In this document: positions 5,109 through 46,569 of the stretch, piece by piece
Layout: each line of letters begins with the position of its first letter
Numbering within the stretch: position 1 is the first letter of the stretch
Program-made: the position numbers and the translations under genes
Origin: Eledone cirrhosa
Lineage: Eukaryota
Assembly (NCBI GenBank): GCA_964016885.1
Contig: OZ024740.1
Span: 395,746,001 to 395,810,000 of the forward strand
Length of the DNA stretch: 64,000 nt
Direction of reading: 5' to 3'
The notes under the pieces: generated by a model
Databases searched by the model: none
The model's input: the letters and a program-made list of their open reading frames with translations, nothing else
What the model was told of the DNA's origin: nothing

Positions 5109-5295
5109 ATCAAAAGATGGTTAAATGAGTTCCATTATTTTATTATGCGCATTTCAAAAACAAATATCATCATGCAATAACATTTGTGTTTTCATCAGAT
5201 AAAATAGGAGGACATGATATGAAGGTTAAAAACACTTGTGGATAGTGCAGTTTTAAATCAACATATAACCATTTAACCTTCATATCATGTCCTCC

Positions 5296-6117: not shown

Positions 6118-8689
6118 AAAAAATGTGTGCGTAAGTACATACATGAGGGCAAGCATATCAGTGTATGTGTGACCACAAATACGTATATAATATATGTTGA
6201 AAAAAGAAATTGTAAGATAATAGAGTTAATGTACATACAGACTCAGGGACTAAGGATTGAAATATATACACATACAAGTATGAAAGCACGCGTATAAACA
6301 CACACGCGCAACCACATACATGCAAGTGATATATACAGGGAAGGGAGTGTATCAGTCAAAGCAGTGTCAGACTGAAGGTCGGTACATATATAAAAAATAT
6401 AAAATATGAAAATGAAAAAATGAAAAAATATATGAGAATAAAAAAAATTAAATCAAAGAGAAAGTAAGAGGGAGGGGTTATCAATTATAAAGTAACACTA
6501 GAAAAAATAGAAAACATACATAGGTTCGTACACACACATATATATATATAAAAATATATATATAAATACGTACAGACAAAAGCATATACATGCGTACATA
6601 CATACAAAAGCGTGCATATATACACACGAAGCACATATATATATGTAAAAAAACATAGATATAAAAACACACATACACACACACATATACACATACACGC
6701 GCACATACGAATGCATTCGTATACATATACAAACACGTATACACACACATGCACACTTACACGCATACATACAATATAAAAACCAGCCGTATGAATAAAT
6801 GAGTACAAATTATATGCAAGTAAACATACATAAAAGCGGCTGAGGGACAACAGAATATATCTGGAGTTGAAAACGCAAGTGACATGAGATATCAGGTAGT
6901 GAAAGAAAAGGGAGAAGTAAAATATGTAAAATTGTGAAGATATAAAGTAAGTGAATCAAAAAGCAGGGGTCACTGGTGGATGTGAAGTAAAAATAAAGTT
7001 AAAAATAAAAATAAAAGTAAATCAGAAAGAGAAGTCTGTAAAGAGGGTAATTTAAGGAAAGTGAAGAACAAGAGTTTATGGAGGATAAGTATCTGAAAGT
7101 TAGTTAAGTTTATATGAGCTGGAAAGCAAGTGTGATTTCATGTGTGGGCAACTGGTGAAAATTTCTGTTTTTGCATTTAGGCAGGTTTTTAGTGATTTAA
7201 GGTTCTGTAAAATCCAATATGTTTCACTTATGCAGAGTGCGCATCTTTTTGTTCCTCTTGCATATTCTTTAGATTGGTTCAAAATTGACCAATCTAATTT
7301 ATATTGGATACCTTGGTCTTTCAAATCCTATATTCTGCTAGCCAAAGCTGTTGTAAATCTTTTTTCAGGATGTCGGAAAGATGCGACATGTGAGTAATAA
7401 CGCGTTTTGAATTTGTCTTGTGTCATACCCACATATCGTTCGCTGGTAGGTTGTTGCAAGTGGTTGTCACTTTAGTCGCATATACAATGGCTTTGGTGTT
7501 GCATTTACCTTGTAATGGGCATTCACTTTTGACTCTACAGGAGTAATGTTGATGTTCTATGGGTATTTTCTTATTGAGGATATAAGATTTAATAGGGGGA
7601 CCGCAGGAGTAGCTGATTTTGACACAGTTGAAGATCTTATAGTATCTATGTGTTCTAGGGAAATGTTTATCTAAGAGCTCTAGGAATTTTTTGCCTACAT
7701 TAGTTTTAACTGCTAAAGAGTAGGGGGGTGTGAACCAGATTATTTTTCTTTTCCTATTATTATGTTTAAAGGAGTTAGTATTGTTGGGTATGTACTTAAT
7801 CGGTTCGCTAAATCCACTATTTTGAAGGGCTTTATTATAATAGGAGGATGCCTTATTGAAAATAGCTTCTGAGGAAGAGAGGGTGGAGATCCTACGGCTA
7901 ATATTAGGCATAAGATTTTTAAAAACTATAGGAGGATGGCAAGAGCCTTTATTTATATATTTTTAATTTTCATTAGGTTTATGGTACGGTTTATAAGAAG
8001 CAGTAGGCAAACCTAGGTTTATATCTAGAAAATTAACATTAGAAAGGTTAGTGTCAATAGTAATTTTAAGATTAAAACGAGCGAAGGTTTTTATTAAGTC
8101 TTTCCTGAATCTACCTAAGTTATGGCCTATAGTGGTATGGGAAAGTATTAGACCATCGTCGCGATAAAGCCCAAAGGTATGGTTAGGGAATTTCTCTTTA
8201 AGTGTGTGTAGGAGGAATAGGCCGACTAAATCACACACGTCAGCACTGTCAAAAGAACCCATTGAGACATCGAATGGGTTCTCTGGGTTAGATTTTTTAC
8301 CCAAGTGTCATTATTAGTAAGTAGTAAAGTGTTTCTAACATGCAAAATGACATTCTCTTCAATATTAGAAATATTGATAAACTTTCTAGCGAAATTTAAG
8401 GCTTTCGTTAAAAGAGGGTGAGTAATAGACGGGTAGCCGTCTACAATGTCAAATTGGGTGAATCTAGAACTATTTTTATCTTTAATATTATTAAACCAAT
8501 GTACTACGGAAGAGCTATTTATCCATTGGAGTAATTCAGACTTACTTCTAATATGTTTGTTTATATTATTTAATATTTTTTTGCTAGCAAGACCAATTTC
8601 AGTCTTAGCAGGGTTGATTAATCTACAACTAGGACGATTAATAAAATCAGGTTTGTGATCTTTGAGGGTGATATAGGCATTACGTTTGG

Positions 8690-8690
<1 letters not shown>
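6110..8690 (-). mobile_element. Penelope-like element (Naiad-like), frameshifted
   Basis: ORF pieces 7963-8304 (MGSFDSADVCDLVG, GLYRDDGL), 7423-7911 (IIWFTPPY, CPLQGKC) and 7100-7324 (CALC, CPH). The 3' boundary is approximate. Confidence 0.8.
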
Positions 8691-8742
<52 letters not shown>

Positions 8743-10446: not shown

Positions 10447-12045
10447 ATACTTTGGGAGGGTCATGTTGCCAATAAGAAACACACGCATCAGTTGCTTTCA
10501 CTCCAATTTATTATAAATTAAATTTATAAATTTAAGAAATTTGTAAATTTCCGGCTGGTTGGTTGGTTGGTTCCACAACCGGACGGTTGTTCATATATTG
10601 TCAAAGTTCTTTCGTCACACATTCTGTAAAATCTTCAGTGACTGGGGATTCTTTTCTTTGTTTTATGCCTCTCCTTTGTTCTGTCCTACGCCATCTTGTT
10701 TTTGTGTGTGTTGTGTGCTTAATTTGCGCATGTGTTACATCCGGGTGTCTGTGTGTGTTTTTATTTGTTTATTTATTTGTTTATTTACATGTTACTAGTT
10801 GGTTGTTTGTTCTATGTGTGTGTGTTTTCATTTTGTCCTTAATTGTAAGTTGTGATGTTGCTATTCCATTCATGTTTCTGGTTACAATCAGAGAGATAAA
10901 ATCAGAGTATATTGAGGAGCCAGAACCAAATGGGAAAAAATGGTAAATAATGATACAAATGTGACCTGCCCCTTGTATAGGACCACATTTTGGAATAGAA
11001 TAGAAAGAACTAGGAATAAGGTTAATAGAATAAACTCATGGTAAGATAGCAATAAATACCAGACTGTAATGTTCATCAATACAACCCCTAGAGGTGAACT
11101 AGCTTACAAATTTAGAAGGACCCTAGATAAACTTAAACTAAATATTAAGATAGTGGAAAGACCAGGTACCTCCATAAAAACACTTATTAGTAATACATAC
11201 CCTTTTCAAAGACCTCCCTGTATAGATAAGAAATGTATAATCTGTAAATTAAGCCCCCATATTAACTGCAAAACTAGAAACATAGTATATAGCATAAGAT
11301 GTACTGAGGGACAATGTAAAGATAAGAATATAGTGTACATAGGTGAGACAGCTCTTAGTATAGGAGAACGGTTAAATGAACACTGGCGAGAGCTTCAAGA
11401 TAGAAAAGAATCATCAGTACTCCACCAACATGATAAAATAGAACATAAGGGCAAATTAGAGAAAATAGAAATAAAAATAAAATCTACACACAGAAAAGAC
11501 GCAATGTTTAGACAAATCACAGAAACAATAAACATAAATGAACTCCAACCATAATTAAATAGAAAACATGAATGGAATAGCAACATCACAACTTACAATT
11601 AAGGACAAAATGAAAACACACACACATAGAACAAACAACCAACCAGTAACATGTAAATAAACAAATAAATAAACAAATAAAAACACACACATACACCCGG
11701 ATGTAACACATGCGCAAACTAAGCACACAATACACACAAAAACAAGATGGCGTAGGACAGATCAAAGGAGAGGCACAAAACAAAGAAAAGAATCCCCAGA
11801 CACTGAAGAGGTCACAGAATGTGTGACGAAAGAACTTTGACAATATATGAACAACCGTCCGTGTGGAACCAACCAACCAACCGGAAATTTACAAATTTAT
11901 AAATTTAATTTATAATAAATTGGAGTGAAAGCAACTGGTGCGTGTGTTTCTTATTGACAACATGACCCTCCCAAAGTATAACAATATCGGTTTCAACACA
12001 CGTTTTCAGATAAAGAATCTTGCTAAACAAATTCAGAAATGAAAT
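10441..12045 (+). mobile_element. Truncated Penelope-like element with inverted pseudo-LTR
   Basis: ORF 11069-11554 is a GIY-YIG domain (IVYSIRC, VYIGET). 10441-10875 is an inverted copy of ~11570-11986, and the 3' end extends about 60 nt further. Confidence 0.85.
11799..11841 (+). ncRNA. Minimal hammerhead in a Penelope pseudo-LTR (relatives on - strand at 10600-10642, 46743-46784, ~51433-51474)
   Basis: CTGAAGA-g-gtcaca-gaatg-tgtgac-GAAA-GAAC-TT-tgac. The relative at 51.4 kb shows covariation in helix II (gttgca/tgcaac). Confidence 0.65.
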
Positions 12046-13569: not shown

Positions 13570-15140
13570 GAGGGTGTTAAAGTTTGCTTGAAGCATTGTG
13601 AAATATGTAGTTTAGAAAGCCACAACAATGCAGATGGGAAATCTCGAGGAAGGAAGTGAGTGAGAAATAGGAGAAAAGTGGAAAATGAGACAAAAAGGAA
13701 AACAAAACAAAGGTAGAAGGGTTACCGTAGTGGAGATTTAATCCCAATATTTCGGGCTCACGCCCATCAACGGGAGGAAAGTTCCAAAAGGGGGGGAACA
13801 GGCTAAGCCGGAGAAAGTTGTTGTATTGTCGTTAAAACATAGGAATGCCGTTATGGGGAAAATTCAAACGAGGGAAAGAATGCGCGTGCGCGTGATAGGC
13901 TGTGGCAAAAGCTACTGACCAATTGGGTTAAATCAATAGGGTGCGCTAGCGCGTGAAAGTCGTAAAATATGTGTGTGTAAATATATATGTGTGTGTAACT
14001 GTGTGTGTATATGTGTATGTGTGTATGTATGTGAGTGTGTGTGTGTGAAAGATAGTGGGCCGTAAAAGCTGGAATTCAAAGAGTGTGAAAGGTGGTAGGT
14101 TGTATAAACATGTGTGCGTGTATAAATATAGATGTGTGTGTGTGTGTGTGTATGGGCATACATATAAGTGCGTGTGTGTGAAAGATAGTAGGCCGTAGGG
14201 GCTGTTACTGGTCACTATGGTTAGATTAGCCATGTCAGTTCATTTCTCTCAGCCCGGTTGTTAAGTGGGGGTCTGAGATTCTTAATAACAAGTGCTTCCT
14301 TTATCCTTAAGGATCCGATGCTGCGTTCAGTCGCTAGGACTGTGACCAAGGGTCTGTCCTGTGGGTTTCCGCATTTAAGGATGTGTTTACGGAAGGAAGA
14401 TGCGTTGGTGTTGACATGTTCCTTGATACGAACATGTAGGGGTCGGATGGTGCTACCTATGTAAAACTTGTTACATTTATCGCATTGAATCTTATATACG
14501 ACATAGGTGCGTAGGCAATCTGCCCCCCGTATCGGGCAGTTGCTGAGAGAACACGTCCCATCTGACTCGTCGAGTTTGGTGGAGAGGCATCTTCGGAGGG
14601 AAGGTCCTGTGTGGGCCAAATGTATGTCAAGTCCCTCCCTCCGTATGGCCCTGCGGATGGCGTTCGTGGTATATTCACTCAGGTGAGGGATTTTAAAGAA
14701 GCACTTGTATTGATCTAAGTTTCTAGTGGGTGTCTGTCTATTGGGTCTGGGGTCTCTAATTCCGTTAATCAGTCGCTTGGAATATCCATTAGACTTGAGT
14801 AGATTGCGGAATTGCGTGGTATGGGTGAGACCACCCATCGGGTCGCTGCATCTATTAGTGATCCGTGTAAGTTCATTTAGGACATAGCCTCTCTTAGCGT
14901 TGTTGGGGAGGGCTGAGTTGTAATGCACAAATAAGTCCTTGCACGCTGCCTTGCGGTAGAAGGTGGTGTTTATGTCTTCTTCTTCCGAGATGTTGATACG
15001 GAAGTCGAGGAGGGCGAGTGACCCGTCTTCTTCAGGGTGTTCGATGGTGAAATCGACGTGATGATCAGTGTCGTTAAAGATTTGGTGAATTTCATTCGCC
15101 ATCTCCCGGGAAGAAGTGAGTATCAGTATGTCATCAACGT
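13570..15140 (-). mobile_element. Penelope-like element (RT C-terminus plus GIY-YIG)
   Basis: ORF 14221-15102 contains FTIE, LLDFRI, FYRK, VVYKIQC, FYIGST and EALVIKNLRPPLN. Confidence 0.88.
13742..13777 (-). ncRNA. Degenerate minimal hammerhead at the 3' end of Penelope element 13570-15140
   Basis: The minus strand reads CCGTTGA-t-gggc-gtga-gccc-GAAA-TA-TT-ggga, with two core mismatches. Confidence 0.4.
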
Positions 15141-15479
15141 ATCAGTATGTCATCAACGTATTATATTTTATATATATTTTATATATTATAGTTAAAACAA
15201 AAACAATAACGAAGAGTGCAGTACAAAGTGTTAGTATTAGGTTCACGCTTGAGAGTGGGGAGTGGATTATATATTATATATATATATTATATTATATACC
15301 ATCATCGTTTAACGTCTATCTTCCACGCTAGCATGGAATATTATATATTATATACATCTATTATATATATTATATATACATATATTATATATATTATAAC
15401 TTAACTTTGATAACTTTGATAAGTTTCAGCCACTATTGGCTCAAGCCATGTCTAACTTAATAGCACCACCTGGTGAAGT

Positions 15480-18653: not shown

Positions 18654-19271
18654 TCTCTCCCTTCTTTCACCAAAAAGAAGTAAGTGACATAGTCACTACT
18701 TTAAAACTGATAGTGTATGGTCTTCTAAATGTTTTTAATTAAACATACGGCATATTGCCAAATATACTATACATACATTCATCATCATCATCACCGTTTT
18801 ACGTCCGTTCTTCCACGCTAGCATGGGTTAGACGGGTTGTCTTGTTGTGGGCAGTGTCCGGTCGGCTGACCATGCCTTGCTTATACAGGAACTGATTTTG
18901 GCTTGATTTCTACAGCTGGATGCCCTTCCTAACACCAACCTCATTTACAGTGAGTGTTGGGTGCTTTTTTTCCGTGGCGCCTACACGTCCACTTTACAGT
19001 GTGGGCTGGGTGCTTTTTTGCCGTGGCACCTCCACGACCACTTTGCAGTGGGAGGGTGTGGGGGCATATTGTCTATATGCTTCAGCTTCAGCTTGTACCC
19101 GTGGGGTGTCGGGTCTTCTCTATTACTGCGTGATGCCAGAAGTCATGGTCCTGTGTCATCGCCTTTGAGAGGTGTAATTGGGTAAGGTCGGCTTTTATCA
19201 CCTCATCCCAGGTGTTCTTGCGTCTCCCCACTACCACTGATGATGATGATGATGATATTCATATATATAAA

Positions 19272-20176
19272 CAGTAGACAGCTTCTGCTACCTAGGTAAC
19301 CGAATTAGCAACGGAGGTGGGTGTTCGGAAAGTACAATAAGGGTTTGAACGAGATGGAAGAAGTTCAGGGAGCAACTGCTACTACTAGCTGCAAAAAGCT
19401 TTTCCCTCAAAATGAAAGGCAGACTGTATGATGCGTTTATACCAACAACAATGTTACAAGGTAGTTGGACCTGGGCGCTGTCTGTGGAAGACTTGCGTAG
19501 ATTAGAAAGAAACAAAGCCTGCATGCTCCGATGGATGTGTAATAGTAATATACGCGAACGGCAAAGCATAAATGAATTGAGAGAGAGACTGAGCATAAGA
19601 GGAATCCAATGCTGTGTGCAGGAGAGGCGGTTGCGTTGGTATGGACATGTGATGCGTATGAAGGATGACAGCTGCATAAAAAGGTGCAGAGCACTAGAAG
19701 TCGATGGATGCCGCGGAGTGGGGAGACCCACGAAAACCTGGGATGGGGTGATAAAAGCCGACCTTACCCAATTACACCTCTCAAAGGCGATGTCACACGA
19801 CCGTGACCTCTGGCGTCACGCAGTAATACAGAAGACCCAATCCTCCACGGGTACAAGCCGAAGCTGAAGCATATAGACAATATGTCCCCACACCCTCCCA
19901 CTGCAAAGTGGTCATGGAGGTGCCACAGCAAAAAAGCACCCAGCCTACACTGTAAAGTGGACGTGTAGGCGCCATGGAAAAAAGCACCCAGCACTCACTG
20001 TAAATGAAGTTGGTGTTAGGAAGGGCATCCAGCTGTAGAAATCAAGCCAGAATCAGTTCCTGTATGAGCAAGACAAGGTCAGCTGACAGGACACTGCCCA
20101 CAACAGGACAACCCGTCTAACCCATGCTAGCGTGGAAGAACGGACATAAAACGGTGAGGATGATGATGATGATGAT
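19272..20176 (+). mobile_element. RTE-type LINE 3' fragment, with an inverted partner at 18780-19235 (-)
   Basis: ORF 19412-19867. The 3' UTR and (GAT)n tail are mirrored at 18780-19235. Confidence 0.85.
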
Positions 20177-27418: not shown

Positions 27419-28179
27419 ACCAACAATATTGATGACCAGCCCCATCACCACAAACACCCACATCATCACCATCATCAACCCCAATGCCACAAAAACCACC
27501 AACAACCGAAACAGAAACAAACCCACAACAAACGCAAACAAAACAAAGCAACCAAACCGATACCCACTACACAGCATTAAACTTGAACAATAAGCAATTA
27601 TTATACTACATCCAACACAACACCAGCATCACATAAAAAAACTATACAACACCCCAAAAATTCACACCACCCACACACATACAAATCACTTGTATCACAC
27701 TGAAAACATACACAACACTAAAATTAAAATTTCCCAAGGACATCGGAGACTTCTGGCAAACATTTTACCTCTTTGGTGATGCCCTGATTAACTTTTTCAA
27801 ATATCATTTGAAAAGGAAAATTAGGGTGGAGAATGAAGTGCTCTCTTCCCAGCAATTTGTTGAAAGATGGGTGAGAGAGGCAAGCATAGCCCGAGTGAAT
27901 GAGCCTACTCTGAGTATGCACCTGTAAATGGGAGGTGGAAAACTGGGAGAGGTCACTTGCTCTGGTGGTCAGGGTCACCGTGGCTTTTTTAATGGGCTTT
28001 CGGATGTCCCCCCCCCCCTCCATTCCTCATTGGGTAATTTTCCTTTGTTTCTTTTTTTTGTTATTTCCTTTGTTTTTTCTTTACACGCAGTCCTATACCG
28101 TCCTGGGCTGTCCTTAATATTCTACTTTATGTCAACCCTTGTGGTTAATAAAGAAAACATTATTATTATTACTACTTGG

Positions 28180-28370
28180 GCAGTGGATTGGCAGTATCGG
28201 CGGTAGAGGGTCAGACGCCATGCTTTCCAGCATAGTTACGTCCCTTTATGATCTGAGTTCAAATCCCGCCGAAGTTGACTTTGCCTTTCATCCTTACGGG
28301 GTCGATAAAATAAAGTACCAGTAATGCACTGGGTAATTGCTGGCCTTGTGCCTAAAAGTAGAAATAATAA
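28180..28370 (+). mobile_element. tRNA-derived SINE
   Basis: Same family as 21680, with A and B boxes intact. Confidence 0.78.
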
Positions 28371-28689
28371 TTACTAGTAGTAGTATTGGCGACCTACGTA
28401 TTATCGTGAGCTCCACAAAGGTTTGTTGTTTTCAGTTGTTTCAAATTGCCAGTTATGGAAAATGTTTGTTGTTAAGTGTTTATAAGTTCATATATATTGC
28501 TTTCTGAAAAGGACACTCAATAATATTGGGGCCTTGAGCCCAAAATTTAAACTTTATTTTGTCAAATAAACAAGTTAAAAAAGAATATGGACGGCATTCG
28601 CCTACTCAAATCTAGCAAGCTGTCTCATGACAACAGCTCTAACATACACACCACTCCCACCACCACCATCATAAGCCTTGCTACAGCTG

Positions 28690-29463
28690 CCAAGACCGAA
28701 AACGTTTTCGCAATATGAGGGACAAGGGTATGAGGGTAAGGACAAACAACAAAGGGGACAAACTATTTCCTTGGAAGATTCCTCTCTTGATCTTCACGCT
28801 GCCCAAGGATTCTCCACCTGATGTTAGCTCTGTTTCCCAGGACTTCATACTTTCACTTAATAGATGTCTGATGTTGTCTGCCACCTTGAAGCTCTCTAGG
28901 CTTTTGGTTATCCAAGAATGAGGTACCATGTCAAATGCCTTCTTGCAATCTATCCATACCATGGCAAGACCAGTATGCCTCCGCTTGCAATTCCTTATTT
29001 TCATCTTATCAATAAGTAACTGGTCTTTTGTACCACAGGACTTCTTTCAGCATCCTTTCTGTTCATCCGGTAATAGGTTGTTTATGTGGAGGTGATAATA
29101 TATTTCCCCAGACTCAATGTTTGTTAATAGTTTCCACATTATGGACAGACATGTGATAGGCCTATAGTTGGTAGCCTTGTTACCCTTGATTCGGTCTTTC
29201 ATTACCAGAACTGTGGTACCTTTTGTCAACCACTTTGTTACTTCACCCGACACCAAGCAGTCAATGAACATGGCTGTCAGTTTTGGGTGGAGGGATGCTA
29301 TATTTTTTATCCAATATCCTTGCACACCATCTGGACCTGGTGATTTCCAGTTGGTTAGTATTTTTGCCTGCTTTTTAAGCGTTTCAGCTGTGATACTCAA
29401 ATCAAGTTGTTGGTGTTCTTGTTCACTAATCTCCTTTTTAACTGTCTCAACTTTATTTGTCAA
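28690..29463 (-). mobile_element. R4/Dong-like non-LTR RT fragment
   Basis: Motifs [39 protein letters not shown] and [13 protein letters not shown]. Confidence 0.75.
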
Positions 29464-29692
29464 ACAAACAATTTTTTTTTTTTTTGGGGGGGGGGGGATA
29501 TGGACAGCATTCGCCTCCCCAAATCCTAAGTATCGTCTTCCTGTCTTCCTCCGGTTGCAACGTTTTTTAAAATATTCACTTCTGCGTTCACAGACTGACT
29601 TTGTTAGTTTCAGAAGATCCCGTTAAGGGTAAAAGCAGCGATTCTTTGCTTAAACTTTAATCTGTTATTTTAATAAATATATATATATATAT

Positions 29693-32276
29693 ATATAGAC
29701 ATAGAATATTCGAAAATATTCTGTATGTTTATAATAAACATTTTGAAGACCTAATCGCTATAGAATAGAATACGTCACGTATTACAATTAGATTCTCGAT
29801 AAAAGCAAGGGAAGTAATCTACGCGTTTCATTCTCGTTAGAAATCATCAGGACTACATATCCAGTGCTTTTATCGAGAATGACACAGCTAGAGACTTATA
29901 GAATACTTAGCTGTGTACAGGAACTGGTTTGAAAGAGCGGTTGCCGGTCCGGCAGAAATTGGAAATTGGAATAAATGCTCTGAAATAGCGATATATATGT
30001 GAATATAGACATAGAATATTCGAAAATATTCTGTATGTTTATAATAAACATTTTGAAGACCTAATCGCTATAGAATAGAATACGTCACGTATTACAATTA
30101 GATTCTCGATAAAAGCAAGGGAAGTAATCTACGCGTTTCATTCTCGTTAGAAATCATCAGGACTACATATCCAGTGCTTTTATCGAGAATGACACAGCTA
30201 GAGACTTATAGAATACTTAGCTGTGTACAGGAACTGGTTTGAAAGAGCGGTTGCCGGTCCGGCAGAAATTGGAAATTGGAATAAATGCTCTGAAATAGCG
30301 ATATATATGTGAATATAGACATAGAATATTCGAAAATATTCTGTATGTTTATAATAAACATTTTGAAGACCTAATCGCTATAGAATAGAATACGTCACGT
30401 ATTACAATTAGATTCTCGATAAAAGCAAGGGAAGTAATCTACGCGTTTCATTCTCGTTAGAAATCATCAGGACTACATATCCAGTGCTTTTATCGAGAAT
30501 GACACAGCTAGAGACTTATAGAATACTTAGCTGTGTACAGGAACTGGTTTGAAAGAGCGGTTGCCGGTCCGGCAGAAATTGGAAATTGGAATAAATGCTC
30601 TGAAATAGCGATATATATGTGAATATAGACATAGAATATTCGAAAATATTCTGTATGTTTATAATAAACATTTTGAAGACCTAATCGCTATAGAATAGAA
30701 TACGTCACGTATTACAATTAGATTCTCGATAAAAGCAAGGGAAGTAATCTACGCGTTTCATTCTCGTTAGAAATCATCAGGACTACATATCCAGTGCTTT
30801 TATCGAGAATGACACAGCTAGAGACTTATAGAATACTTAGCTGTGTACAGGAACTGGTTTGAAAGAGCGGTTGCCGGTCCGGCAGAAATTGGAAATTGGA
30901 ATAAATGCTCTGAAATAGCGATATATATGTGAATATAGACATAGAATATTCGAAAATATTCTGTATGTTTATAATATTTTCGAATATTCTATGTCTATAT
31001 TCACATATATATCGCTATTTCAGAGCATTTATTCCAATTTCCAATTTCTGCCGGACCGGCAACCGCTCTTTCAAACCAGTTCCTGTACACAGCTAAGTAT
31101 TCTATAAGTCTCTAGCTGTGTCATTCTCGATAAAAGCACTGGATATGTAGTCCTGATGATTTCTAACGAGAATGAAACGCGTAGATTACTTCCCTTGCTT
31201 TTATCGAGAATCTAATTGTAATACGTGACGTATTCTATTCTATAGCGATTAGGTCTTCAAAATGTTTATTATAAACATACAGAATATTTTCGAATATTCT
31301 ATGTCTATATTCACATATATATCGCTATTTCAGAGCATTTATTCCAATTTCCAATTTCTGCCGGACCGGCAACCGCTCTTTCAAACCAGTTCCTGTACAC
31401 AGCTAAGTATTCTATAAGTCTCTAGCTGTGTCATTCTCGATAAAAGCACTGGATATGTAGTCCTGATGATTTCTAACGAGAATGAAACGCGTAGATTACT
31501 TCCCTTGCTTTTATCGAGAATCTAATTGTAATACGTGACGTATTCTATTCTATAGCGATTAGGTCTTCAAAATGTTTATTATAAACATACAGAATATTTT
31601 CGAATATTCTATGTCTATATTCACATATATATCGCTATTTCAGAGCATTTATTCCAATTTCCAATTTCTGCCGGACCGGCAACCGCTCTTTCAAACCAGT
31701 TCCTGTACACAGCTAAGTATTCTATAAGTCTCTAGCTGTGTCATTCTCGATAAAAGCACTGGATATGTAGTCCTGATGATTTCTAACGAGAATGAAACGC
31801 GTAGATTACTTCCCTTGCTTTTATCGAGAATCTAATTGTAATACGTGACGTATTCTATTCTATAGCGATTAGGTCTTCAAAATGTTTATTATAAACATAC
31901 AGAATATTTTCGAATATTCTATGTCTATATTCACATATATATCGCTATTTCAGAGCATTTATTCCAATTTCCAATTTCTGCCGGACCGGCAACCGCTCTT
32001 TCAAACCAGTTCCTGTACACAGCTAAGTATTCTATAAGTCTCTAGCTGTGTCATTCTCGATAAAAGCACTGGATATGTAGTCCTGATGATTTCTAACGAG
32101 AATGAAACGCGTAGATTACTTCCCTTGCTTTTATCGAGAATCTAATTGTAATACGTGACGTATTCTATTCTATAGCGATTAGGTCTTCAAAATGTTTATT
32201 ATAAACATACAGAATATTTTCGAATATTCTATGTCTATATTCACATATATATCGCTATTTCAGAGCATTTATTCCA

Positions 32277-32282
<6 letters not shown>
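29693..32282. mobile_element. Palindromic tandem array of 310-bp hammerhead-containing units (retrozyme-like)
   Basis: Period is 310 (atagaatattcgaaaatatt at 29701, 30011, 30321, 30631, 30941). The array inverts around a 12-nt spacer (30961-30972), has about 4 units per arm, and is flanked by (TA)n. Confidence 0.92.
31147..31189 (+). ncRNA. Type I hammerhead ribozyme (copies: + 31457, 31767, 32077; - 29814, 30124, 30434, 30744)
   Basis: gtagtc-CTGATGA-t-ttct-aacg-agaa-t-GAAA-CGCG-TA-gattac. Helix I is gtagtc/gattac, helix III is the palindrome ACGCGT, cleavage triplet is GUA. An outer stem ttctcgataaaagca/tgcttttatcgagaa encloses it. Confidence 0.88.
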
Positions 32283-32324
<42 letters not shown>

Positions 32325-33094
32325 TATATATATATATGTATGTATATGTGTGTATATATATATGTATATATGTAGGTATAGGTGTGTATGTGTAGATATA
32401 GATATGTATGGATATGTGTGTATATGATTATGTGCATATGTGTAAATGTGTATTTAGGTTTGCATCTATTTGTGCGTATGTATATTTTTGGTTGGATATC
32501 AATATACCTGTACCTCTCTGTATATACTTTGTAATCTATGAAATTTATGTGTTTTAACTATGCCAACATGTATTTATCTGAGTTTGATTATTTATGCATA
32601 AACATACTTGATAGTATTTTAGAGCGTATCATATGCTGTATTATACTAAGTGCAATTTACCACACCGTACTATATTGTGTTGGTTAAGTTGTATATTATC
32701 GCATTACTGTATTTCATTATCTTATTATAATTTTCATCTTTTAATATACTATCCTTCCTAGCGATAACCTTAATTTATATTCACCTAAAAACTCAATACA
32801 ACACTAATCACCATTTATTTTGACATTCTTTTTAACTTCACTATACAAGATACATTCAACTATCGGTTTGACAATCTCTTTCCTCCTAATAGATTTTTAT
32901 GCCAAATCTACTATTAACACCATTCAACCGTTCCTTTCAAAGGGTCATGACCTCAACTAAAGTATATTACTTTTCATCTTAACACCATATGAAAAAAACA
33001 ATTTGATTCGTTAGTTCTTCAACTACCCCCAAATAAGGACATGATACTAACATACTACTAATTGTGAATAAAATTATTATTGAATAAAATTATT

Positions 33095-33234
33095 ATTGCT
33101 TTTGAAAACAGCTGGGGATATGCATGTAAGTAAATATTCTCTTTATGTGATATTTTGTAACTAACCTTACATAGATCAATAACGGAGTATAGCTACAATG
33201 TATTATCATCATCTAGAAACGATCGTAAAGCAGT
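33095..33234 (+). ncRNA. Degenerate hammerhead with TTGAAAA (U3-A8) core and long helix II
   Basis: attgctt-TTGAAAA-~107 nt-GAAA-CGATCG-TA-aagcagt. Confidence 0.5.
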
Positions 33235-33278
33235 GAAGTATATCTCTAAGGACTTGCTTTTTTATTTCATTGTTTTAA

Positions 33279-33345
<67 letters not shown>

Positions 33346-34551
33346 ATGTTCAAGACCTCGACGGCAGAGCTCAGGCCGCTTTGACAGCTATTTCTGACCG
33401 TTATGGTCCATTTGGTTCCTTACCACACTTCCTTTGTTATATATATATGTATATATATATATATGTGTGTGTGTGTATATATATATATCATCATCATCAT
33501 CATCATCATTTAACATCTATTTTCCACACTAGCATAGGTTAGATGGGTTGCCCTATTTGAGGCAAGTTTTTCTGGCTAGGTTTCTATAGCTGGATGCCCT
33601 TCCTAATGTCAACCATATTTACAGTGTGTGCTGGTTGCTTTTTGTCATGACTCCTACTCGACCACTTTATATATAAATATATATACATATATAAAATGTA
33701 ATATATATTTTATTACGATTTTTTTTTTAATTTATACATGATAAAACTTAAATAATGCATTTACAAAAGCAAATAATGATGGGTTAAAGAAAACAGAATG
33801 GCCTAGAATGTTCAACACAGACAAAGAAACCAGATGTTATTGCAAGAAAATCTTTTATTTAATTAATAGCTGTATACAATATGTGCTAAGGGAATTGTAA
33901 TTTTTCTTATGTAATGTCCTATATGCATTTGAAATTGTTGGTTATAGTTCTGATCCAGGAGACAGTTGATCCACATTCCATATATGGCCATCGATGCTTT
34001 TATTCAAACATAGTATATCTAATGTATAGAATGACTGTTAGTATTAGTGGCTATAGTTGTACTTGTAGTAGTTGTTTAGCTCCAGGTCAGTCTTGATTCA
34101 ACAAAACTATATTTAAAGATATTTTATTTATCACCATCCTAGTTTATATTCAGACATAATGTATCTAGGATTACACTATGTATAGTACTTTGTATTAATA
34201 GCTCTAGTTGTTGCTGTAGTTGTAGTAGTTGTTTAGTCATGTCAGCCTCAATCAATTACAGTAGTAAGATCCCCGTCGAGTATTCATTGATGTCTGCAAA
34301 ATAGGAGTGGAATAAATAATAAATAAACAAAAAACAAAAAGGTGAAACGTGGGATGGATGGGAGTAGTGGAACAACAGCTTTTTTTTTATTCAATGAAGA
34401 CTTTTCAGAGAAAAAGTCTGAAAAAAAAAGCAAAAGTAAAAGTATTGTAGTTGTTATTTAATCATAGGTTAGTCTTGATCCAGCAGAATATGATAAAAGA
34501 TGTTCCAGCTGAGACGATCTCATGATTTATTAACACATACACACATGCATA

Positions 34552-38999: not shown

Positions 39000-41057
<2,058 letters not shown>

Positions 41058-41060
<3 letters not shown>

Positions 41061-43390
41061 GGAGGTGAGTTTTATTGTAGTACAATAAAGCAATGCAGAT
41101 ATCGGATAAGAAGCACTCTACAGTTTGTAGGACTGGAGTATACATAATATATAAGAACAAAAGATGGTTAAAAGAGTTCCATGTATTTTATTATGCGCAT
41201 TTCAAAAACAAATATCATCATGCAATAATATTTGTGTTTTCATAAGATAAAATAGGAAGACATGATATGAAGGTTAAAAAACACTTGTGGATAGTGCAGT
41301 TTTAAATCAACATATGAAAAGTAGTTTTAGATTGATGTGTGATATTGGGAAAAATATATTTTTTAGGGGGGGGGGGGGTGAAAAAGAGTAGGAGATGAGA
41401 GTAAAAGGTGGAGAGGGAGGAGTATAATGAGGAAGGAGGAGATAGGAGGAGAGATGGCTGATAGAGAGAGAGAGATAGCTTTTATAACTGAGAGAAATAT
41501 ATTGTTTTACATAGAGAGGTTGAAAAACCGTTGGAAGATAATGTATAAATTAAAAGAATTTGAAAATTAACGAAGAGAAAAATAATGTAAAGTTAAGGTT
41601 TGTATATTGAAGGGTTTAATAATATGTGCGATGAAAAGAAAATGTTAATATGTATTAAGAATAATATTTAAGGGTTTAATAATATGTGCGATGGAAAGAA
41701 AATGTTAATATGTATTAAGAATAATATTTAAGGGTTTAATATGTGCGATGGAAAGAAAATGTTGATATGTATTATTAAAAAGAACAACAAGTAATTTAAG
41801 TAAGGATATATTGTGAGATGAGCATGAGTAAGTTAGATGAAAGGGAGAGAAAAATAATGAATTGAGGATGAATAATCTAACGTCAAAAAATGTTTATGTT
41901 TACGAAGGATTTTTGCAAGGTAATATAAAGTAAGAATGTATTGTATTGTGTAATAATTGTTTCTATGTTAGGCAACAGTGAGAAAAGGTACAGATTAGGG
42001 GTTAGACATTAAAAGAAAAAGAGAAGAAAGGGAAAATGAAGAAAGGGAAGTGATAAATAGGAGTGATATAGAATTAGTAACAAGTATTATATAATGTATA
42101 ATAAATAACTTTGAAATAAGGTAGAAAGATGGGTATATTTTTAAAGAAGTATATATATATGTGCCTTTGAGAAAAAGATTCTAAATTGATAAAGTTTTGG
42201 ATATTAGCTGTATACTTTGTGGAATGTTTTGTGGAATTTATGCAAGCAGAGAGAAAACAAGTCAGTGCGTCTACTTATAGAATCTAAATTAGATATAATG
42301 GTAAATTTTTCATTTAGACAGAGATTGCAAATCTTGGATAGAGAACTGTTCAAGTATAGAGACGCAGAAGAAACCTTTTTCCAAAAGATGCTCTATTTAA
42401 TATTTTTGTCTTTCAAGGACCATATGAGTTCTGAGAGAGCCATGTTGGTTCTTTTAAGTTTGTATTTAAAAGACGAATGATGGTTATAAAGACGAGCTTT
42501 AAAGGAGGTGGAAGTGGAGCCAAAATAGGTGAAGGAATTTGTGTCAGTTATAACTTTACATTCGTAAATTAAGTTTTTATAAAGACAATGGTTGTTAAGA
42601 GGACATTTATTTTTAACAGGGCAATTGCAATTGCGATTAGAGAGATTATTAACGAGTGACCTAGTGTTATCTATAGAAGGAATTGGATTGGAGAAGTTAT
42701 TTGCGATAGGAATAATAGTTTCTTGATTTAGAATGGGATTAAGAACATTTGGCGAAGTTGTGTTTGACGTTGTATTTGGGTTTGCAGAAATTAGCCTAGG
42801 GTTTACAATGACGTCGGGAGTACTATTATTATGATATTCAGTGTTGGAAAGAAGAGATTTAGTATTTAGTATTTTATTGTTGTGTTTAGAGATAATGTTG
42901 GAAATGTTGGAGGATGTTGAATAGGAAAATTTTATAGTGTGTTTGTTAAATATTTTACTATAGATATGTGAGGGAGGGAAGCATTTATTTAAGGCACTAA
43001 AGAATAATTTAGGAATATTATTATTAATAGAGATGGAGAAAGGAGCATTATACCAGATTATGTTTTTGTATCTATGTCTTTTATTAAAGTTATTGGAATG
43101 ATCATGATTAATTATTCTACTGTAAGATCTTCTAGAATTTGTTTCTTTACTATATTTGATTTTATCAGGATAGCCAGCTTTAGAAAGCGCGTTATTATAG
43201 TAATTGGCGTTAGCATCAAAGATGTTTTTATTAGAAGATAGGTTAAATATTCTTTTTCCAATATTACTAACTATAGCATTCTTGATATTAGTAGGATGGT
43301 TAGATTTAAAATTAACATAATTTAGGTTCTCATTGTTTTTATGGTAAGGGTAATATAGGCCAGTGTTAAGATTAAGAGATACATCCAAGA
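41058..43390 (-). mobile_element. 5'-truncated Penelope-like element (Naiad-like) with 3' UTR and hammerhead pseudo-LTR
   Basis: ORF 42393-43451 contains FLDVSLNL, IIWYNAPF, CNC-CPL-C and LIYEC..YFGST. Positions 41058-41315 match 5105-5492. Confidence 0.85.
41184..41254 (-). ncRNA. Hammerhead motif (core mutated G5U) in the 3' pseudo-LTR of a Penelope element
   Basis: Same family as 5296-5366, but the core reads CTTATGA. Confidence 0.7.
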
Positions 43391-44986
43391 AATTAGCTAG
43401 TTTGATGCAGACCTTTGAGTGGATGTATCTGCTTCCAAAGTGATCCCACACTACATATTCTGACTAAGGCCATATTTGATGAAGAAGAATAAATGTAAGA
43501 AAGACTACTTATCCAATTCTTACGGGAAAAGGACAACTGATTCATCCTTGCAGCTAACTATGGATGGTGGTGGTGGTGGTGAGGTTGATGTAGACATCGG
43601 TATTAGTAGCCTTATAGTTTTTTCTTCCTACCCTCTTTTTTATGTGGATGAAGTCAATTGCCTGCCTCTAACTGGTGTTATGAAGTGAGACTTGACTTCA
43701 TGCACATTGGCAAACATCACTTGGACTGTCAAATTTTTTGCCTTGGGTGATATGAATTTTGCCTTTTCACATGCATCCCAAGGCTTTGGGGATTTGAGTC
43801 TCAGAAGTCTGTTCAAAATGGTGTGACTTTGCTCCAATTGTACAGTATGTCAGTTTAAAATGGAGAGTATTTTCCATTATATCAGATGGAGGTTTGAGGC
43901 TCACCCAGTGACCAATCTGTTTTTTCTTCCCTTACTTCCTCCTCTGAGATATATCTTTTCAGGATATTTCTGTCGCAACCATGAAGGAAGCAAGTAACTG
44001 GGTGGACATTTTTTCTATATTGTTGGCAGCAGCTTCAGTTGGCTTGGAAACTGTGTCATTGCTCATGAGATGGCTTGTTAACTGGTTGGTTGACCAGTAA
44101 ACTGACTAGTTAATTTAGTGCTTGTTTGACTAGGTATATGGTTAGCTGGTTGACAGTTTTACTGTCTGTCATATTGTTGTTGTGGTTACTGTTGCTTTTT
44201 GTTGTTTTTTTTATTATTGATTTGGATGCACCCCACAAACAAAAGGTAGGTATGTTCTCTCAGTTCTTGCCACCAGCCCATTTATCAGCGCTATCCTTTT
44301 TTACACCACCAGCTTGGTATCTTTAGCTAAGTCTATTTAGCTTCTGTTTTTCCCCACTAGAGTGTAGTCAAATTTACCTTTCATTCTTTTGAGGGGTCAA
44401 TAAAATACAATGCCAGTCCAAAGTTGTTAAAACATCAGACGGAATGCCTTGCTGTACTTTTTCCTTTACATTCTCATGTTTTCTGTGATAGCTATACTGC
44501 ACCCATTGCACAGTTTAATATTGGGTGCCTAAATGGAGTTCACTCTGTTGCAATTATTCAGACAAGATTCCTGATTTGAAGATTCATTCCTTCCTTTCTC
44601 TGTTCAGCATCAGATGTCCTGAGAAATAAATGGTCATGGCAGCTGTCCTTCCCATTTTGACAAAAATGGTTTTAAAAACAAGTATTCAGATCTTTTGTCT
44701 GAGGATTACTTCCTTTCTTCCTCCCAGTTTGGGGGGCTTTAAAAAGGGTCACTTACAACGCTTGTCCCTATTGCCCTAGACAATTAAATAAAAATTCATA
44801 ATAATCACCATCATCATCTTCATCATTATCATCATCATCATTGTCAGTATAGTCAATGCTGGTTATAAGATTCAAAAGCACCTCCTTCTCTATGGAACAT
44901 TCATGTTACTCAATAGAAACAAATGAAACAAAAGATAAAAATTATATATTAAATATAAAATGAAAATATAAAAAAAGACTACTTAC

Positions 44987-45648: not shown

Positions 45649-46569
45649 CCGTTTAATGTCCATCTTCCATGCTAGCATTGGTAGGACAGGCTGTCCCTTT
45701 GTGAGGGATCAGGTTGAGGGACCGTGATTTGCTCACACAGAACTGATTTGGCTTGGTTTCTATGACTGGATGCCTTCCTAACACCAACCAGATTTACAGT
45801 GTATGCTGGGTGCTTTTTGCTGTGTCACATACACGACCACTTTACAGAGTGAACTGGGTGCTTTTTTCGTGACACCCACACGACAACTTTACATTGTGGA
45901 CTGGGCACTCGCTTTTGTCACAACCACTATAGTGGGCTGGGATCTTTTGTCGTGGCTCTAGTGGGGTGGGATCATTTTATAGAAGAGTTGGAAACTTGGG
46001 AGGGGTGGGGGAGATTCTTTGGGAAATTGTGGATGTAGGAATAAGGGAGGTTTATGGGAGGATAGATGGTAGGGAATGGTCTTGCCTACCAGGTATATGC
46101 CTGAGCCCAAGAATAATAGAGGGTGGGTCTTCAGTAATATGAATTATATATATATATAGGTGTGTGTGTGTTAACTATTTCCGAAGACAAAGCAAACTAA
46201 AAAAGAGTGCTCTATATATAAAACAGAGCTATTTAATTAGAAAGTGAACAACACAATATATAACTACTCCATTACCAAAGGTTTCAGGACCCTAGACAAT
46301 ATTAATATATGTCAGACAGCAAGGTTATCTAACCTATATATACAGTATATACATGAAAAGATTCAGGATCCCGATGGCTGAGCTCCGGCCGCTTTGACAG
46401 CTAGATACAAACTGTTCAGATTTAGCTGTCGAAACTCAGCTGTCGGGGTCCTGAATCTTTTCATATTACCCACTCTACTACCTTAAGTATTCAGAACTCT
46501 GGTGGATTATGGCGCACTTGGTATTTTAATACACCCTTTCTTATATATATATATTTAATATATTTCGTT

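Follow-up and report, generated by a model that had tools for sequence, protein, structure and literature searches.

A two-armed array of 310-nt units in a (TA)n tract

The window, by which we mean the whole 64-kb stretch of Eledone cirrhosa DNA that was analysed, carries a head-to-head array of a 310-nt unit with the following features.

29524..29680, no strand: end piece of an abundant Penelope-like family, a neighbour outside the array, 91-97% identical to the ends of loci L115-L142
29677..29692, no strand: left (TA)n target tract, adjoining the left arm
29693..30976, minus strand: left arm of about 4.1 monomers (310 nt each); its 3' end points outward (left), stops at site A and merges into (AT)n
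29814..29856, minus strand: hammerhead type I motif, repeated at 30124, 30434 and 30744
30961..30976, no strand: centre, made of an unpaired 12-nt spacer (30961-30972) and a 4-nt microhomology (30973-30976) common to both arms
30973..32281, plus strand: right arm of about 4.2 monomers (310 nt each); its 3' end points outward (right) and stops at site B (monomer position 168)
31147..31189, plus strand: hammerhead type I motif with a predicted cut after 31183, repeated at 31457, 31767 and 32077
31184..31493, plus strand: cut-to-cut monomer of 310 nt, a predicted circular RNA; monomer positions count from its first base
32241..32281, plus strand: 41-nt extension at one outer end only, counterpart of the Penelope-like "tail" between two start sites
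32282..32371, no strand: right (TA)n target tract, adjoining the right arm

The arms form an inverted repeat of 1,268 bp without mismatch (29693-30960 and 30973-32240, spacer 12 nt), the 310-nt period is kept without mismatch within either arm, and TRF run on the window found 310 x 4.2 twice. An earlier note, written from the letters alone, had described eight identical units, four plus four inverted around a 12-nt spacer and lying inside (TA)n, and the perfect repeat and the TA tracts on both sides bear this out. Its layout stands with a true end at 32281 instead of 32282. The left arm reaches 30976, so that the arms overlap by a 4-nt microhomology, and the note overlooked the key feature of the locus, which is that the right arm has 41 nt more (32241-32281) without a left counterpart.

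The array was inserted into the (TA)n of the Penelope-like end piece, which itself splits a broken non-LTR retrotransposon (28681-29622, Pfam RVT_1), the whole being a three-layer nest. Elsewhere in the window, short tandem pairs of 47-49 nt lie beside the ends of RTE-like retrotransposons (18944-20004, 40748-40853 and 45806-45905), one pair being inverted.

The unit and its predicted hammerhead

The 310-nt unit has about 35% GC and its longest stop-free frame is 59 aa, in agreement with its earlier description as non-coding; the reverse transcriptase and GIY-YIG open reading frame of an autonomous Penelope-like element is absent from it. The circular monomer folds at z -4.3 compared with 100 shuffles. 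A scan of the unit sequence gave no Pol III A or B box and no octamer, the sole promoter-like feature being a TATA-like run at site A.

A 43-nt motif with the core, helix I and helix II of a type I hammerhead is present in all eight units, as had been proposed. Helix I has 6 bp and is firm in the monomer (pair probability 0.84-1.0), helix II opens on a U-U mismatch followed by 4 bp, and its pairing in the monomer is weak (probability about 0.15), and helix III is reduced to one pair with a palindromic tetraloop able to pair between two motifs. The duplex between two motifs is computed at -9.5 kcal/mol, and self-cleavage is a prediction. A one-pair helix III with a palindromic loop is the form of dimer-dependent metazoan hammerheads (PMC4209133), and the features of the unit point to the dimer type that the earlier note had favoured. 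The Rfam hammerhead scan suggested in that note gave no match in 28000-34000 at E<=1; on a 121-nt excerpt, the best model of clan CL00010 was Hammerhead_HH9 with 15.8 bits (E 0.12) against a gathering score of 52. By structure we count the motif as a predicted hammerhead, because its core aligns letter for letter despite the sub-threshold score. Rfam miRNA matches were dismissed as merely the central hairpin of the palindrome.

The distribution of variants suggests that the ribozyme is under selection and that only cleavage-competent units propagate, although the numbers are small. The 11 distinct locus-fixed variants within the motif spare all of its 16 core and helix III positions and sit at a free core position or in loop II, close the U-U pair, or preserve helix I pairing, whereas 4 of the 11 single-unit variants strike these 16 positions. 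The idea that 311-nt units insert a base at the ligation point was rejected, the extra base being 2 nt downstream, inside helix I.

Nearly every insertion ends once at site A and once at site B

In the family, outer 3' ends fall at site A (126-139) or at site B (163-172), counted from the cut and about 30 nt apart. The first 101 Mb of contig C1 hold 42 minus-plus end pairs within 20 kb and 21 unpaired ends. One A and one B make up 41 of the 42 pairs (binomial p 1e-11), and the remaining pair (L078) was also A+B when inspected. Seven unpaired ends were fetched (L064, L107-L112), of which four proved to be part of ordinary A+B arrays, two were single arms and one lay at an N run. Among 25 two-armed loci chosen by similarity or by hammerhead and not by their ends, a hand count gave A+B in 24, the exception being B+B (L047). 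Overall, 61 of 65 fetched two-armed loci are A+B, a count which is not independent because many of them were chosen by those ends.

The outer ends adjoin (AT)3+ in 116 of 130 cases, which corresponds to the AT-rich or (TA)n target of Penelope-like elements; target-site duplications are unreadable in (TA)n. The offset between A and B, one of each per insertion, matches the 30-40-bp tail that these elements carry at one end. The first 100 hammerhead matches represent 10 loci, nine of which are arranged minus-then-plus, like the inverted 5'-truncated head-to-head copy of Penelope-like insertions, and this layout is the normal form of the family. The link to Penelope drawn in the earlier note thus gains an inverted copy, a tail at one end and a (TA)n target bias. 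Complex insertions with four alternating arms and overall A and B ends were observed at L033 (C6:99365500-99375400) and L073.

A large and very young family

The exact 43-nt hammerhead has 4,033 matches in the 3.0-Gb assembly and the control has none, so that the motif is not due to chance. The end-pattern search counted 779 B ends for just the plus strand, minus-strand counts being inflated through overlapping matches, and the first 101 Mb of C1 contain 52 B ends and 53 A ends; scaled up, the family would comprise about 1,500-1,900 insertions. Two-armed loci have a mean of 9.8 units. Private substitutions within loci amount to 0.0006 per base (95 in 160,589), from which the family appears to be very young or still active. 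The earlier reading as a young non-LTR retrozyme-like element is upheld by its tandem non-coding units, each with a hammerhead, and by its many dispersed, near-identical copies. Judged by every testable sequence criterion, the family is a non-autonomous member of the retrozyme kind inserted in Penelope-like fashion.

The unit, its tandem joint, and the A end with AT repeats are also present in public short-read contigs (run X3, perhaps from the same sample). A near-identical unit was found in runs X1, X2 and X6, which carry three other organism codes, with summed depths of about 365, 14 and 4 compared with about 500,000 in X3; contamination, diet or true sharing may explain it. In X1 and X2 the unit forms a single, clean, self-closing 340-nt contig with 0 variants.

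Both arms are probably copies of one monomer

Variants are nearly always fixed throughout all units of both arms. Differences per full unit average 0.40 within loci and 3.5 between them (518 units, 62 loci). The haplotypes of the two arms were compared in 45 loci with at least two units in each arm, leaving out L044, L072, L082 and L089 (contig-end, overlapping or duplicated). The arms are identical in 44 of the 45, for 7 expected by chance pairing, and subfamily markers are mosaic in just one. These loci carry 21 haplotypes, 19 of them seen once, while the two common ones cover 26 loci. In the 47 loci with at least six units, 134 variant events are fixed and 83 rare, with 4 at intermediate frequency. 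Six of these loci have fixed variants that are strictly private, and private variants are fixed in 22/22, 19/19 and 17/17 units. In 645 passes across the cut site, 5 substitutions and no indel occurred at 308-1, which speaks against jumps from end to end of cut monomers. Most simply, one monomer template, that is a circle, would have been copied repeatedly for each insertion.

Some loci depart from this pattern. A minority variant is present in both arms or mosaic in seven loci (L031, L039, L068, L083, L098, L100 and L111), and in L068 and L100 the outermost unit of one arm shares it with the innermost unit of the opposite arm, the pattern predicted by twin priming on a linear multimer. Single-unit variants recur, one in three loci (L038, L070 and L105) and one in two, and rare variants reappear in the same arm at distances of 3, 5 or 7 units, which means that block duplications occur.

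Arm lengths and centres

Arms range from less than 1 to 27 units and their lengths are weakly correlated (rho 0.26). Arm A is longer by more than one unit in 19 of 61 loci and arm B in 24, only 11 having arms within half a unit of each other; extreme pairs occur in both directions (0.9 vs 8.3, 3.2 vs 19 and 1.2 vs 27 units). Short two-armed copies also exist (L065, L074 and L075).

The centre was resolved at 57 loci, three others having failed to anchor. Nine joints are blunt, nine share 1 nt, 25 share 2-5 nt, one shares 16 nt and 13 contain inserts; among the 44 insert-free joints, 26 overlap by at least 2 nt, compared with 18% for random joining. A 296-nt foreign piece was captured at the centre of L084. 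Inner ends are scattered around the unit, and none of the 114 lies at positions 298-11 flanking the cut site, a gap noted post hoc, which argues against run-off of the enzyme at the ribozyme cut. Inner ends seemed to be overrepresented close to site B, but the excess disappeared without the similarity-selected loci L031-L050 (10 of about 82, 7 expected; hand count). By hand count, 19 of the 57 centres are near-symmetric (at most 31 nt off) for about 12 expected, so that fold-back or joining aided by hairpins may take place locally in some cases. The window locus is among them, which accounts for the fold-back proposed in the earlier note.

Penelope-like elements and sister repeats

The genome is rich in Penelope-like elements that keep long open frames, up to 879 and 809 aa. 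In 50 loci belonging to two Penelope-like families of the window, nothing matched the unit sequence apart from chance neighbours, and no autonomous partner was found beside 43 loci carrying the shared core of the unit. As candidates for the ORF-linked ends of a partner, 1,037 shared-core matches were rejected, since they are an older sister repeat family; of 79 variant-core matches, the 12 examined were variants of the two repeat families.

In this older family (L051-L061, L143-L162; e.g. L056:3450-4522) the unit is about 320 nt long and 70-80% like monomer positions 59-235, and its two end sites and head-to-head layout match those of the 310-nt family. Almost all copies have U3-A8 in place of the C3-G8 core pair of the hammerhead; helix II covaries and helix III is palindromic. 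It has at least 817 B-type ends; of 61 examined, 11 face an A-type match head-to-head and in no case is the partner another B, the A pattern also matching internal units. Short palindromic stumps in (TA)n are abundant (L043, L050, L056, L108, L111, L114, L119, L136, L146 and L166). Their hammerhead has a long loop 3 and a helix II resembling that of the 310-nt unit, and they end about 20 and 87 nt past the cut; this stump family is a possible source of the ribozyme of the unit.

The window itself holds at least eight other hammerhead-like motifs of several families, at 5198(-), 9801(+), 10063(+), 10638(-), 17436(-), 17919(-), 21010(+) and 46780(-). It also holds Penelope-like fragments with a Pfam GIY-YIG match (11045-11554, plus strand; 14221-15141, minus strand) and others without a Pfam match (1071-1985, 7423-8741 and 42393-43463, minus strand), whose relatives have frames of 709-771 aa resembling a reverse transcriptase and an endonuclease. 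These fragments are putatively Hydra-like. The motif at 5198(-) is also found downstream of the ORF family of 42393-43463.

Probable priming at two sites on a shared RNA

The insertions are best explained, on balance probably, as products of a young hammerhead family for which a Penelope-like protein primes reverse transcription at A and at B on the same RNA, likely the 310-nt circle. Priming of two strands at two fixed sites is the well supported part of this explanation and we consider it very likely; among the remaining options for the template, a circle is the likely one. That a dimeric Penelope-like retrotransposase would perform two simultaneous rolling reverse transcriptions on one ribozyme-made circle, from fixed starts and on both strands of one break, is a tentative extension.

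By analogy with known retrozymes, transcripts of the units would be cleaved by dimeric hammerheads and closed into circles by ligation. The earlier note expected transcription of either strand to give four cleaving sense units, which is doubtful: a read-through transcript would meet the antisense arm first and likely fold into a 1.27-kb duplex, so that productive RNA probably stems from single-arm loci or from transcription that begins within an arm. A Penelope-like protein with reverse transcriptase and GIY-YIG domains might bind the conserved region at about 59-235 and would nick both strands of the (TA)n tract. The nicked target strands would then prime inside the RNA, one at 126-139 and the other at 163-172, where the outer ends are observed. 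Each enzyme would circle the template a variable number of times, as the variable, unequal and clonal arms suggest. The two cDNA ends would be joined at any phase through the 0-5 nt of microhomology or the short inserts seen at the centres, and later duplications or conversions among units, visible in a few loci, would add slight noise.

Several observations sit uneasily with this circle-based explanation. The partner search gave no autonomous element with the sequence of the unit, either in the two Penelope-like families or at the shared-core loci; 8 of 9 Xenopus retrozyme dimers failed to cleave in vitro according to the available text of a preprint (bioRxiv 2026.07.22.740005); and the lizard element used uncut RNA in vitro, its hammerhead not being needed (PMC11167929). 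The variant placement in L068 and L100, the seven loci with shared or mosaic minority variants, the recurrent single-unit variants, the private fixed variants in only 6 of 47 loci and the two haplotypes in 26 of 45 also weigh against it. Many of these would suit the same two-strand, two-site priming on long, uncut, linear multimer transcripts of existing arrays: uncut RNA is the main in vitro substrate of the lizard element (PMC11167929), L068 and L100 show the expected arrangement, one rare variant is common to L038, L070 and L105, and a few master arrays would leave many loci on two haplotypes. With a linear template, however, a private variant would hardly become fixed across both arms in every one of 17-22 units, nor would subfamily markers be mosaic in just 1 of 45 loci, and transcripts of 6-9 kb are needed in which up to 27 hammerheads stay uncut, yet the motif looks selected for function. 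We therefore consider a linear template unlikely. Less likely still is a short two-armed Penelope-type insertion of 1-2 units that grew by unequal crossover or slippage with gene conversion. Tandem growth by local amplification is already in print (bioRxiv 2026.07.22.740005), and the block duplications and the short two-armed copies are in its favour; but arrays of 10-28 units that differ by so few private substitutions need a near-simultaneous expansion of both arms, and ongoing homogenisation predicts many intermediate-frequency variants where 4 were found in 47 loci.

The earlier note had proposed rolling copying followed by a fold-back switch. Here a cDNA rolls off a circle, self-primes and copies itself, the second end being cut by an endonuclease at an AT-rich site; self-priming has been proposed or favoured for Penelope inversions (Arkhipova et al. 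2013, PMC3846280). Clonal arms are what such a process would likewise yield, and they agree with the rolling part of the claim; the near-equal arms and 12-nt loop of the window locus and the mild near-symmetric excess, which also weighs against the circle-based explanation, fit the switch. A self-copied arm should, however, stop at the starting point of the first arm and not exceed it in length, whereas the ends are A versus B, neither end type lies steadily on the longer arm, the extremes go both ways and two thirds of the centres are far from symmetry. As a general rule fold-back is largely refuted, and as the origin of the family it is very improbable. Long palindromes are known to arise as read artefacts, from fold-back chimeric reads in the assembly or library. 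Against this, dozens of fetched loci obey the end rule with differing left and right flanks and scattered centres, and the short-read contigs of X3 contain the unit, its tandem joint and an A end with AT repeats; an artefact is so improbable as to be negligible, and the window array is real.

Implications of the proposed two-site priming

The retrozyme class is known; what is new is the fixed outer ends, one A and one B per insertion. Together with the inverted arms, they are the Penelope-like signature of an inverted copy plus tail, on a retrozyme. Retrozymes are thereby tied to the Penelope machinery through insertion anatomy, not through co-occurrence. The origin of tandem and inverted Penelope-like insertions and of their tails is stated as unresolved (PMC8557442, PMC11167929), and retrozyme circles as templates with Penelope proteins as helpers are a hypothesis (PMC7229834; bioRxiv 2026.07.22.740005). 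With some 1,500-1,900 very young insertions, the family is a natural experiment in which ends, arm lengths, joints and haplotypes are readable, and besides a strict rule of one A and one B it offers a 310-nt substrate on which the start sites are mapped. By implication, the genome contains several megabases of long, perfect palindromes, from which dsRNA and instability would likely arise. If two reverse transcriptases do work on one circle, the arrays are a genomic record of circRNA-templated retrotransposition, and double target priming would account for the inverted-copy-plus-tail structure of all Penelope-like insertions.

Comparison with known systems

Metazoan non-LTR retrozymes (PMC7229834) resemble the family in their non-coding tandem units of 170-400 nt with GC below 45%, their type I hammerhead and the Penelope-like elements in the same genome; axolotl HHR_Amex1 shares the one-pair helix III with palindromic tetraloop and HHR_Amex2 the U-U at the base of helix II. 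They are described as head-to-tail and their circles were experimentally shown, whereas almost all insertions of the present family have two arms with fixed A and B ends, and its circles are predicted. The main text of PMC7229834 has no "head-to" wording, and its "invert" passages are all "invertebrate" in the 12 of 13 places covered. Circle-templated tandem cDNA synthesis by Penelope proteins is the hypothesis of Cervera and de la Pena 2020 (PMC7229834). Li, Clavereau and Pollet linked retrozymes to Penelope-like elements via co-occurrence and pLTR homology (bioRxiv 10.64898/2026.07.22.740005); the dependence on Penelope-like elements agrees with our reading, unlike their preference for local amplification into tandems, and "palindrom", "tail" and "head-to" are absent from the available text of their preprint. 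Chlamys elements such as MRC1 are likewise multicopy, non-autonomous Penelope-like insertions, described as head-to-tail, unlike the two-armed family here (PMC8557442). In the open-access literature we found no two-armed retrozyme arrays with an A/B end rule; subscription journals and supplements may show such arrays.

The purified Anolis Poseidon protein cuts and extends both strands in vitro, is predicted to dimerise, and starts at two adjacent internal RNA sites bounding the tail (Frangieh et al. 2024, PMC11167929). The AT-rich target and the two adjacent starts downstream of the hammerhead cut are those of the 310-nt family, whereas the Poseidon template is linear, its hammerhead dispensable, its later steps unvalidated, and a one-site-per-arm rule is not stated in the available text (PMC11167929). 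The inverted 5'-truncated copy, the 30-40-bp tail at one end and the (TA)n bias are Penelope-like hallmarks of unresolved mechanism (Craig et al. 2021, PMC8557442). The EN+ elements, especially the (TA)n-targeting Hydra, Naiad and Neptune clades, share with the family the head-to-head copy, the one-end tail, the hammerhead in the terminal region and a microsatellite target without readable duplication (PMC8557442, PMC3846280). Unlike them, the 310-nt family has no ORF, both of its arms are multi-unit (up to 27), and it has no sequence link to the two window Penelope-like families compared. In L1 twin priming, a head-to-head inversion is also joined by microhomology, and the second primer lands anywhere, whereas both starts are fixed here.
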